The position numbers and the translations under genes were made by a program. A stretch of 38,370 bases of DNA from a virus (Duplodnaviria; Heunggongvirae; Uroviricota; Caudoviricetes), in IMG/VR virus record IMGVR_UViG_2645727901_000003, positions 1-38,370 of that record; one strand, 5' to 3'. The stretch's first letter is position 1. Each line of letters starts with the position of its first letter. Of this stretch, positions 35,776 through 37,263 are shown in pieces. Below the pieces are notes generated by a model. The model was given only the letters and a program-made list of their open reading frames with translations. It did not search any database and was not told the DNA's origin.

Positions 35776-36035
35776 TACCTCACCTCCAGTCTCCATACCG
35801 CCTGACCAATCCGGCTGGCATGGGTATCTTTAGATACTGTTCCGTCTTTAGCCAGCTCCATAAGAATTTTGCGCAAATCTGCCGAGCGCCATTCTTCATC
35901 AGGAAATTCCTTCTCCATTGCCAACCGCAGATTCCAGGTTGCTATCGTGAATGGATATTCCCCGCCGAGAGCTTTCTCTTGCAGGGCCGCACGGGAACGT
36001 ATCACCTGCAAAACCTTCTCTTTTACATCCATCAT
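35775..36035 (-). CDS. Early-region hypothetical protein
   Basis: 86 aa from ATG 36035 with AGGAGG Shine-Dalgarno, ATGA overlap with upstream stop. Confidence 0.4.
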   Translation of the reverse strand: MMDVKEKVLQVIRSRAALQEKALGGEYPFTIATWNLRLAMEKEFPDEEWRSADLRKILMELAKDGTVSKDTHASRIGQAVWRLEVR

Positions 36036-36658
36036 TTTGCCTCCTGCGGCGGTTCTGGTAGCGGCATCCAGTGTGATGGTATCCACGACGCACCAGGTAT
36101 TACCCACCCATCATTAGCGTCAGGATGCCCCGGGATGTAAGTCGCCCATTTCATTCGCCAGTCACCTTTCCTGTCAAACTCCCTGGCAACAAGAACGGCT
36201 GTTTTGCTATCCGGCATTCGCTCACTACAGCTTATCCAACCGCCCGGAATTACCGGAGAGTTGCCATTTACATCGAAGTTTGGCTCTGCGTCCTGAACTA
36301 GGAGGATGTAACCATTCTTGGCTGTATCAAGTTCTAACGCCTCGGTGACGGTACCGAAATAGCGATTACCTAAATCAGCATCACAAGTGCTTACATCAAT
36401 GGAAACTTCCATCCCTTCGATTAATTCTGGCAAGTTGTAAGTTTGGCTTACAGGCTCTGCTTCCAGTGATGCCAGTGCAATTCGTGCCAGCTCACGCACA
36501 ACTTCAGGGGGCGCGTAACGGTCATTCAGGTCATCCCACAGGCGTAGCATGTTATCGCTACCAGGGTGAACATCCTCGTTAGTTCCGGCAAGCGCACTAA
36601 TAACCTCATCGGCTGCTTCAATAATTTTCTGTGCCTGTTCTCTGGTAATAGTGGTCAT
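36032..36658 (-). CDS. DUF551-domain phage protein
   Basis: C-terminal GWISCSERMPD...WIPSHWMPLPEPP pattern typical of DUF551. Confidence 0.6.
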   Translation of the reverse strand: MTTITREQAQKIIEAADEVISALAGTNEDVHPGSDNMLRLWDDLNDRYAPPEVVRELARIALASLEAEPVSQTYNLPELIEGMEVSIDVSTCDADLGNRYFGTVTEALELDTAKNGYILLVQDAEPNFDVNGNSPVIPGGWISCSERMPDSKTAVLVAREFDRKGDWRMKWATYIPGHPDANDGWVIPGASWIPSHWMPLPEPPQEAK

Positions 36659-36668
36659 TTGTTATGCC

Positions 36669-36866
36669 TCAATACACGAAATCTGTTTTAAATTCATGGT
36701 TACATTCTGGACAGCATGTTTCGTAACCTTTTATTTCTTCACATGCCTGTTTAGCTCCAGAAAACTCCCAGAAATCAGCGTCACAAAGCAGATCGAAATT
36801 GTGACCGCATTTTGGGCATTCGGTATCAAGTGACAGATTCCAGTAAGCAGTGGTGTTTTTATCCAT
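36669..36866 (-). CDS. Small zinc-ribbon protein
   Basis: 65 aa from ATG 36866 with AAGGAG Shine-Dalgarno; CPKCG...CCPEC. Confidence 0.45.
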   Translation of the reverse strand: MDKNTTAYWNLSLDTECPKCGHNFDLLCDADFWEFSGAKQACEEIKGYETCCPECNHEFKTDFVY

Positions 36867-36867
36867 A

Positions 36868-37263
36868 TCAGTCTCCTTTCCCCTGAAGCATAGCGGCACG
36901 GCAGGCGTTCCAGCCTCTCACCTCTGCAATAGCGGCAACAGCATCAACCGCGTACATGCTAAGAGGATTAGGCATTGGTTTTTCTTCCGGTACTACTTGC
37001 GCTGGAGGGGCGGCGTAAATGCCCTCTATCACTAAATGTTTGCGCTCAAAATCATCTGGCTCTCGATGATATACGTAACTCCAATCACCAAGGTTATCAT
37101 TGCGCCTGCAACGGAAACCTATCGGCTCGACTTCCAGCGATGCCAGAGCAATTCGTGCCAGTTCTTCCGCTTCTTCTGCTGGCAGTACAACGTTGCTACC
37201 CGGTCCGTATGTTTCGCGCCACTGCTTGATTGTCAGCAGTCGCTCTTTGGTAATAGTGGTCAT
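36868..37263 (-). CDS. Early-region protein sharing N-terminal domain with the DUF551 protein
   Basis: 131 aa; MTTITKE.../ELARIALASLEVEP matches MTTITRE.../ELARIALASLEAEP of 36032..36658. Confidence 0.5.
   Translation of the reverse strand: MTTITKERLLTIKQWRETYGPGSNVVLPAEEAEELARIALASLEVEPIGFRCRRNDNLGDWSYVYHREPDDFERKHLVIEGIYAAPPAQVVPEEKPMPNPLSMYAVDAVAAIAEVRGWNACRAAMLQGKGD

Follow-up and report, generated by a model that had tools for sequence, protein, structure and literature searches.

Shared sequence blocks in two accessory genes of a Caudoviricetes genome and their place in a mosaic protein family

The stretch of viral DNA analyzed here (IMG/VR virus record IMGVR_UViG_2645727901_000003, Caudoviricetes, positions 1 to 38,370; in the following called the window, with a full length of 38,370 nt) carries two genes, here named P1 and P2, whose N-terminal parts resemble each other. 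The sequences shared by the two genes are real and well beyond chance, although they are narrower than was first claimed. Judged by profile matches, P1 and P2 are paralogues within PHROG 60 (annotated as EaA/Eaa or DUF551), a very large mosaic family of accessory proteins from temperate phages of Enterobacterales. Members of this family resemble beads on a string, with up to six conserved blocks in a fixed order and interchangeable cassettes between them, and the sequence shared by P1 and P2 corresponds to the blocks B1 and B2, which bound an N-terminal leader predicted to be helical. We consider it probable (roughly 0.78) that selection at the protein level preserves the blocks and that the same blocks double as joints at which recombination exchanges the cassettes downstream or removes the DNA that lies between two copies. 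This explanation is carried by the following findings: both proteins belong to the family, its architecture is modular, B2 is constrained at the protein level, breakpoints lie at the edges of blocks, and natural hybrids cross over in B2.

The two genes, their parts and the repeats that they share are located as follows.

36032..36658, minus strand: P1, 208 aa, with long leader, private middle and C-terminal DUF551 (blocks B1-B2-B5-B6; open reading frame (ORF), Pfam, PHROG, block census)
36449..36658, minus strand: long leader of P1, aa 1-70, three predicted helices (AlphaFold2 with alignment)
36452..36493, minus strand: block B2 of P1, ELARIALASLEAEP, aa 56-69; a mosaic junction lies just 3′ of it
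36254..36448, minus strand: middle cassette of P1, aa 71-135, beginning with VSQTYNLPELIEG; found elsewhere behind a long or a short leader
36044..36241, minus strand: DUF551 domain of P1, aa 140-205, from WISCSERMP to HWMPLPEPPQE (Pfam)
36868..37263, minus strand: P2, 131 aa, with short leader, middle and GWNACRAAMLQ tail (blocks B1-B2-B3-B4; ORF, PHROG, homologues)
37120..37263, minus strand: short leader of P2, aa 1-48
37123..37164, minus strand: block B2 of P2, ELARIALASLEVEP, aa 34-47
36883..36915, minus strand: block B4 of P2, GWNACRAAMLQ; relatives continue here with a stop codon or with a linker and DUF551
36453..36512, no strand assigned: 60-nt direct repeat (family D1), copy 1, 77% identical to copy 2
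37124..37183, no strand assigned: 60-nt direct repeat (family D1), copy 2
36639..36658, no strand assigned: start repeat, copy 1, 20 nt, 95% identity, with ATGACCACTATTACC identical in both copies
37244..37263, no strand assigned: start repeat, copy 2, 20 nt

Extent of the similarity between P1 and P2

Both ORFs were found on the minus strand where a first-pass annotation of this DNA had placed them, and both proteins begin, as described there, with MTTIT(R/K)E and contain ELARIALASLE(A/V)EP. The start regions had been called identical, and this holds: within the 38 kb window, ATGACCACTATTACC (reverse-complemented, GGTAATAGTGGTCAT) has exactly two occurrences (36644-36658 and 37249-37263), both at a start codon, and it was not found in any of 100 shuffles. 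For a second block at 36461-36494, an identity of about 90% had been given. Here the similarity is real (30 of 34 positions, 88%), but the partner sequence is located at 37132-37165, so that the start noted before was off by one. A 31-nt core of this block, CTGGCACGAATTGCNCTGGCATCNCTGGAAG, is likewise found exactly twice in the window and was absent from the shuffles.

The two genes had further been described as adjacent and as sharing a near-identical N-terminal domain. The former is not the case, as a gene for a 65-aa zinc-ribbon protein (36669..36866, phrog_4173) intervenes. As to the latter, the similarity is significant (BLASTP of P1 versus P2, E = 5e-7), but near-identity is limited to two blocks of 7 aa and about 15 aa. 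The alignment contains 27 identities in 70 columns and 22 gap positions, which make up two 11-residue gaps, and the leader comprises about 69-70 aa in P1 versus 48 aa in P2.

A family of fixed blocks and variable cassettes

P1 and P2 both match phrog_60, phrog_3323, phrog_660 and phrog_5117 via their N-termini. The match to phrog_60 has an E-value of 1.2e-53 for P1 (profile positions 116-282) and of 9.3e-24 for P2 (profile positions 116-183), which also matches phrog_5117 with E = 1.2e-21. P1 contains in addition a full-length DUF551 domain (PF04448; aa 140-205, profile positions 1-68 of 68, E = 9.9e-21, 74.8 bits at a gathering score of 22 bits), and P2 yielded no Pfam match at E <= 0.1, DUF551 included. 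NCBIfam holds no model for P1 or P2, and the leader is covered by no Pfam or NCBIfam model.

A leader profile, built from the two sequences, was searched against 1.84 billion representatives and retrieved 836 clusters at 50% identity, 510 of them at E <= 1e-10. In nearly all of the best 150, the match lies at residues 1-70 of proteins with a length of 71-397 aa. What follows downstream differs widely: among 140 leader-bearing representatives, 31 carry DUF551, seven a dATP/dGTP pyrophosphohydrolase domain and one Lar, with about 100 lacking a Pfam domain, and the position right after ...ELARIALASLEAEP(V/I) is occupied by 134 distinct 8-mers in 310 proteins. The leader matches together with these varied C-termini support the earlier suggestion of domain shuffling, in which one N-terminal module has been joined to a variety of downstream parts. 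Within the leader, too, there is mosaicism: at least six unrelated cores of varied length sit between the start heptapeptide and the terminal helix ELARIALASLE. Named phages with this leader include epsilon15, epsilon34 (gp26), ES18 (gp38), SPN3UB ('Eaa') as well as Oslo and SEN22 ('EaA'), and its hosts include Escherichia, Shigella, Salmonella, Klebsiella, Enterobacter, Citrobacter, Trabulsiella, Edwardsiella and Plesiomonas. A scan of genome contigs, which gave 10 loci, was used for taxonomic breadth only.

A block census of the family distinguished six blocks in fixed order, namely B1 (MTTITxE), B2 (ELARIALASLE; ELARIALASLEAEP), B3 (YxAPPAxVVP), B4 (GWNxCRxAML), B5 (WISCSERxP) and B6 (HWMPLPEPPQE). 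The blocks are colinear in every architecture, the members hold differing subsets of them with interchangeable cassettes in between, and the same cassette occurs behind different leaders. The middle cassette of P1, for example, is joined to the long leader in the homologues P0244 and P0249 and to the short leader in L001, L083 and P0191. Pieces of P1 are present in 2371 of 5426 complete E. coli genomes, the whole combination in only four, all of which belong to the E2348/69 lineage.

The first-pass annotation had set a DUF551 C-terminus in P1 against an unknown one in P2. P1 does end in DUF551; the end of P2, however, is part of longer DUF551 proteins and does not represent a separate domain class. 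P2 has 4878 homologues, the best of which are DUF551 proteins of 200-228 aa in which the full P2 sequence forms the N-terminal ~129 residues, and one of them (P0007) consists of P2, a short linker and a DUF551 domain nearly identical to that of P1. P2 itself stops after B4, short of the point at which DUF551 starts in the longer homologues. Since the whole of P2 is contained in DUF551 proteins, it is to be seen as a short form of the family and not as the product of a fusion with some other domain type. Other short forms with various middles also end just after GWNxCRxAML(Q)GKG (P0009, P0067, P0089 in 41 contigs, P0201, P0218, P0232). B1-B2-B3-B4 is the most frequent architecture among the P2 homologues, and the whole of P2 is found in 70 complete E. 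coli genomes.

The database annotation of such short forms deserves a remark of its own. The copy in E2348/69 that is identical to P2 (L002 7096-7224) is annotated by RefSeq/PGAP as an incomplete pseudogene comprising the first 43 codons only, and a 120-aa short form on the phage-plasmid pE2855-2 (L083 4204-4329) as a 'missing C-terminus' pseudogene comprising the leader only. These calls on intact short forms look like systematic mis-annotation, by which annotation pipelines would mislabel them as pseudogene fragments.

With respect to the level at which the blocks are conserved, 4 of the 13 codons of B2 shared by P1 and P2 differ synonymously. Across 29 unique family sequences, nearly all changes in B2 are synonymous third-position changes (for instance CGA/CGG/CGT for R, GCA/GCT/GCG for A and CCG/CCT/CCA for P), and the block forms the peak of synonymous diversity within the leader. 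This free synonymous variation indicates that B2 is held by selection on the peptide, which constitutes helix 3 of the leader model. This model, generated by AlphaFold2 with a 148-sequence alignment, places helices at residues 6-23, 35-48 and 51-66 of P1 with a predicted local distance difference test score (pLDDT) of 77-83. In the same prediction DUF551 appears as a small beta-rich domain (pLDDT about 76-80) and the middle of P1 stays below 50. A single-sequence prediction of P1 was uninformative (pLDDT 42).

Recombination at the shared block and competing explanations

An epsilon15-like prophage of the same type in E. coli A0 34/86 contains a single hybrid DUF551 gene, which consists of the P2 short leader followed by the P1 middle and the P1 DUF551 domain, with the switch from P2-type to P1-type nucleotides located inside B2. 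Relative to the window, this hybrid corresponds to the loss of a 671-bp repeat unit (about 36491-37123). The same hybrid protein is encoded on pE2855-2, is complete in 18 complete E. coli genomes, and exists as a frameshifted copy in P0191. As these natural recombinants cross over inside the shared block, exchange has really happened there and the block is not just a sign of common descent. Next to its hybrid DUF551 gene, pE2855-2 harbors in the same operon a second family member (L083 3967..4329, minus strand) with a third version of the leader, MTTITKERIELFIKNPLDNGLTRGEQMELARIALASLEAEPV, and the tail GWNACRAAMLQGKGGE; the pairing of a short form with a DUF551 form therefore recurs with different sequences.

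About 20 related loci match the window over the P1 leader alone (36450/36456..36658/36675), which identifies the leader as a discrete mosaic segment at the DNA level. In a sample of ~80 loci, selected for carrying the leader, the ends of high-scoring segment pairs accumulate at block edges, namely at 36450-36464 (32 ends), at 36255-36269 (34 ends, just before DUF551) and at 37110-37124 (11 ends), with further clusters at 36195-36224 (to 36269), at 36030-36044 and at gene starts and ends. Moreover, a lambdoid prophage of the enteropathogenic E. coli strain E2348/69 (L002 = NC_011601.1 722728-725058) shows 100% identity to positions 36040..38370 (at least 2331 bp), which implies a very recent transfer between unrelated phage types. 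This identity breaks off among the final codons of P1, within the DUF551 tail, and the rest of the window is epsilon15-like. In E2348/69, the cassette sits in the int/xis-proximal early-left region.

Because the blocks are conserved in otherwise unrelated alleles, they probably serve as short homologies for recombination. Rad52-like phage recombinases recombine short and diverged homologies (De Paepe et al., 2014, PMC3945230). In E2348/69, the operon with the cassette also holds a Rad52/Rad22 gene; the corresponding part of the phage studied here lies outside the window. Rad52-like annealing proteins of phages would most plausibly catalyze the exchange at the blocks.

Several points weigh against this explanation. 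The shared blocks are short, with a longest perfect identity between P1 and P2 of 15-16 nt, and recombination between the two copies is for this reason deduced from the hybrids of relatives that are 95-97% identical, and not from a direct ancestor-descendant pair; it is equally possible that the hybrid arose elsewhere and was then imported. The cluster of breakpoints at the leader edge is partly built in, because the loci were picked for carrying the leader. In addition, the first 21 nt of the genes are devoid of synonymous variation, which is not explained by selection at the protein level alone. Finally, Pfam, NCBIfam, PDB sequence and Foldseek searches gave nothing informative on the function of the leader, of DUF551 or of the middle cassette: neither P1 nor P2 matched any PDB sequence, Foldseek against the PDB returned nothing at E <= 0.001 (the best matches, Tudor/chromo-like fragments at E about 0.6-1.4, are not significant), and Foldseek against BFVD returned other DUF551 proteins only. 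In the literature on DUF551, EaA and the HK620 'linker sequences', a functional study of the P1/P2 family was likewise not found. Conserved boundary sequences are reportedly a topic of the HK620 genome paper, which forms no part of the evidence given here.

The invariant start leads to the idea that the conserved nucleotides are mainly a DNA or RNA element, be it a dedicated site for recombination, an element of translation initiation or a regulatory RNA. Over both leader types, the first seven codons (ATGACCACTATTACCARAGAR; 36638..36658 and 37243..37263) are nearly invariant, and in 20 unique long-leader sequences they show zero synonymous variation while the neighbouring codons vary. In the longer block B2, however, synonymous sites vary freely, the two start regions showed no RNA structure above shuffled controls when folded (z = 0.24 and 0.52), neither inverted repeats nor recombinase-type core sites were found around the blocks, and the sequences of P1 and P2 upstream of the ATG are not conserved. 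Such an element, which we regard as quite improbable as an explanation of the whole, is contradicted for B2 and may apply to the first 21 nt. It is also unlikely, if slightly less so, that P2 is the decaying residue of a once full-length DUF551 gene, whose C-terminus was lost when the zinc-ribbon gene inserted. This would fit with the fact that its best homologues are longer DUF551 proteins containing all of P2, and with the pseudogene calls by RefSeq/PGAP on the identical E2348/69 copy and on the analogous 120-aa gene of pE2855-2. Yet the P2 ORF of 131 codons is intact and terminates right after the conserved B4, and stand-alone short forms (...AMLQGKG(D/E/K) or similar), including the 120-aa ORF of L083, recur with several middles and leaders. 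The occurrence of the whole gene in the 70 E. coli genomes and the predominance of B1-B2-B3-B4 among its homologues speak against decay as well. So do a ratio of nonsynonymous to synonymous polymorphism (pN/pS) of about 0.26 versus the L003 copy, a value based on 11 differences only, and the ribosome-binding site of the downstream gene within the P2 tail, which is usual for tightly coupled functional genes.

We regard it as very improbable that the genes were recently duplicated in tandem within this phage and then diverged rapidly everywhere but in the two blocks. The two copies do lie in direct orientation in one operon, 605-671 bp apart, but P1 and P2 are unalignable beyond the blocks, with all 27 identities in the first 70 columns, and their shared B2 has already accumulated the synonymous differences in 4 of 13 codons mentioned above. 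Furthermore, short and long leaders are each widespread independently with many partners, and two copies are present in only about 6 of 81 related loci. As no similarity along most of both copies was found, recent tandem duplicates were rejected as a candidate.

Protein-selected blocks that double as recombination joints remain the preferred explanation, and it raises the question of what the leader might do. It is conceivable that the leader acts as a common helical adaptor, by oligomerisation or by docking on one partner, and presents variable C-terminal effector cassettes that act on the host; we make this suggestion tentatively. Clearly more doubtful is the wider notion that the block series is a selected cassette-exchange scaffold, the leader adaptor of which docks the members on one hub of the host or the phage, or drives oligomerisation. 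If true, this scaffold would keep hundreds of effector cassettes recombination-compatible across unrelated temperate phages, prophages and phage-plasmids, among them DUF551, dATP/dGTP pyrophosphohydrolase, Lar-like and zinc-finger cassettes and many without an assignment, and it would represent a phage counterpart of the polymorphic-toxin architecture for host takeover or counter-defence.

Genomic setting and relation to known systems

The genes of the window are those of a temperate podophage or prophage of the epsilon15/phiV10-like type with an Escherichia-like host. Its structural genes match those of the Salmonella phages PAT1, 65FD and VB_ST_E15 at 88-91% and those of the phiV10 group at 77%. 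Every gene around the P1/P2 part of the window is carried by the minus strand. P1 and P2 belong to a tightly packed accessory operon upstream of the gene for the small terminase subunit (terS), which is read from 38353 to 35437 and comprises, in this order, an 89-aa ORF, an Ead/Ea22-like gene, a 63-aa ORF, P2, the zinc-ribbon gene, P1, an 86-aa ORF and a last ORF of 112-119 aa that matches phrog_536. In E2348/69 the cassette is placed between the recombination genes and xis/int, in epsilon15-like prophages between the replication genes and terS. The neighbouring and landmark genes are listed below.

36669..36866, minus strand: 65-aa zinc-ribbon gene between P2 and P1 (CPKC...CPEC; phrog_4173, E = 8.8e-28)
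37459..38097, minus strand: Ead/Ea22-like gene (PF13935, E = 2.1e-22), two genes upstream of P2
34433..35074: terS
6243..7433: integrase
9666..12377: tailspike

The 65-aa zinc-ribbon protein has two CxxC pairs with four cysteines in total and weak YnfU/zinc-ribbon matches. The Shine-Dalgarno sequence of its gene sits within the last codons of P2, and in general the tails of P1 and P2 hold the ribosome-binding sites of the genes downstream (36035..36060 and 36866..36885). The P1 tail ...PPQEAK is encoded by CCGCCGCAGGAGGCAAAATGATG and the P2 tail ...GKGD by GGGAAAGGAGACTGATATG. As these sites lie within conserved C-terminal tails, the tails appear to serve in translational coupling as well, and mosaic junctions fall at the same places.

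A promoter and terminator scan of 34400-38370 gave no more sites than expected by chance; four of the sites are promoter-like, and P1 and P2 are preceded by none of these on the coding (minus) strand. The label 'early', which the first-pass annotation had attached to both genes, reflects gene position only. A terminator-like hairpin at 35078..35101 (minus strand; 10 pairs and a T-rich tail) lies directly upstream of the terS start (35074), between the accessory operon and the late genes; such sites are no commoner than chance there. Elsewhere in the window, an Ant-type anti-repressor gene (13140..13838, plus strand) is found on the opposite strand between the tailspike gene and the remaining late genes. 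The region beyond the integrase (1..6200) contains genes for a NikA-like mobilisation protein (990..1430) and an AAA_25/RepA-like ATPase (2770..3627) as well as several ORFs without a family match, all of which may be part of a mobile element of its own or of the phage early region.

The accessory regions of temperate enterobacterial phages ('ea', exo-xis, nin-like) are poorly understood and are increasingly suspected of containing genes for host manipulation or counter-defence. The P1/P2 locus shows how genes in these regions can be built, with protein-selected blocks that would double as joints for the exchange of cassettes among podoviral, lambdoid and plasmid prophages. The leader (MTTITxE...ELARIALASLEAEP) is widespread and merits a family model of its own, and it could be used as a single bait to find the partner of hundreds of otherwise unrelated proteins.

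A close parallel is offered by Ea22 and the Ead/Ea22-like proteins of lambda and of Shiga toxin (Stx) phages (PF13935), one of which is encoded in the same accessory operon as P1 and P2. Their published organisation is likewise mosaic: one amino-terminal segment is common to them, and the portable C-terminal domains are unrelated and include DUF551 in one Stx variant (PMC10834534). P1 and P2 differ from these proteins in that they do not match PF13935, are without a long coiled coil and have another leader (MTTIT...ELARIALASLE); moreover, Ea22 has a pro-lysogenic phenotype and a nuclear magnetic resonance structure, whereas the P1/P2 family has neither.

With the DUF551 proteins (PF04448; YfdS of the cryptic prophage CPS-53, HkaE of HK620, and the proteins of epsilon15 and epsilon34, the latter gp26), P1 shares the full DUF551 domain, and those of epsilon15 and epsilon34 are headed by a leader of the P1/P2 type. 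P2, in contrast, is without DUF551, and the leader is outside any Pfam or NCBIfam model. DUF551 has been called a portable domain that occurs in one Ea22 variant and in YfdS (PMC10834534), and loss of yfdS reportedly leads to sensitivity to H2O2 (as cited in PMC4776307 and PMC10834534). The EaA/Eaa genes of P22-like and other Salmonella phages (as annotated in SPN3UB, vB_SosS_Oslo and SEN22; gp38 in ES18) occupy the same accessory position, and tblastn with the leader matched these annotated genes at 45-91% identity. The name EaA is positional (from the 'ea' region) and carries no function.

In a broader context, the mosaicism ascribed to relaxed homologous recombination (PMC3945230) likewise features short conserved stretches in unrelated sequence, internal crossovers and exchange between phage types. 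The P1/P2 family differs from it in that the junctions lie within genes at module boundaries and recur over hundreds of alleles, and are not one-off intergenic joints. The P1/P2 locus is in this respect a clear instance of well-documented phage mosaicism, and it overturns no current view.

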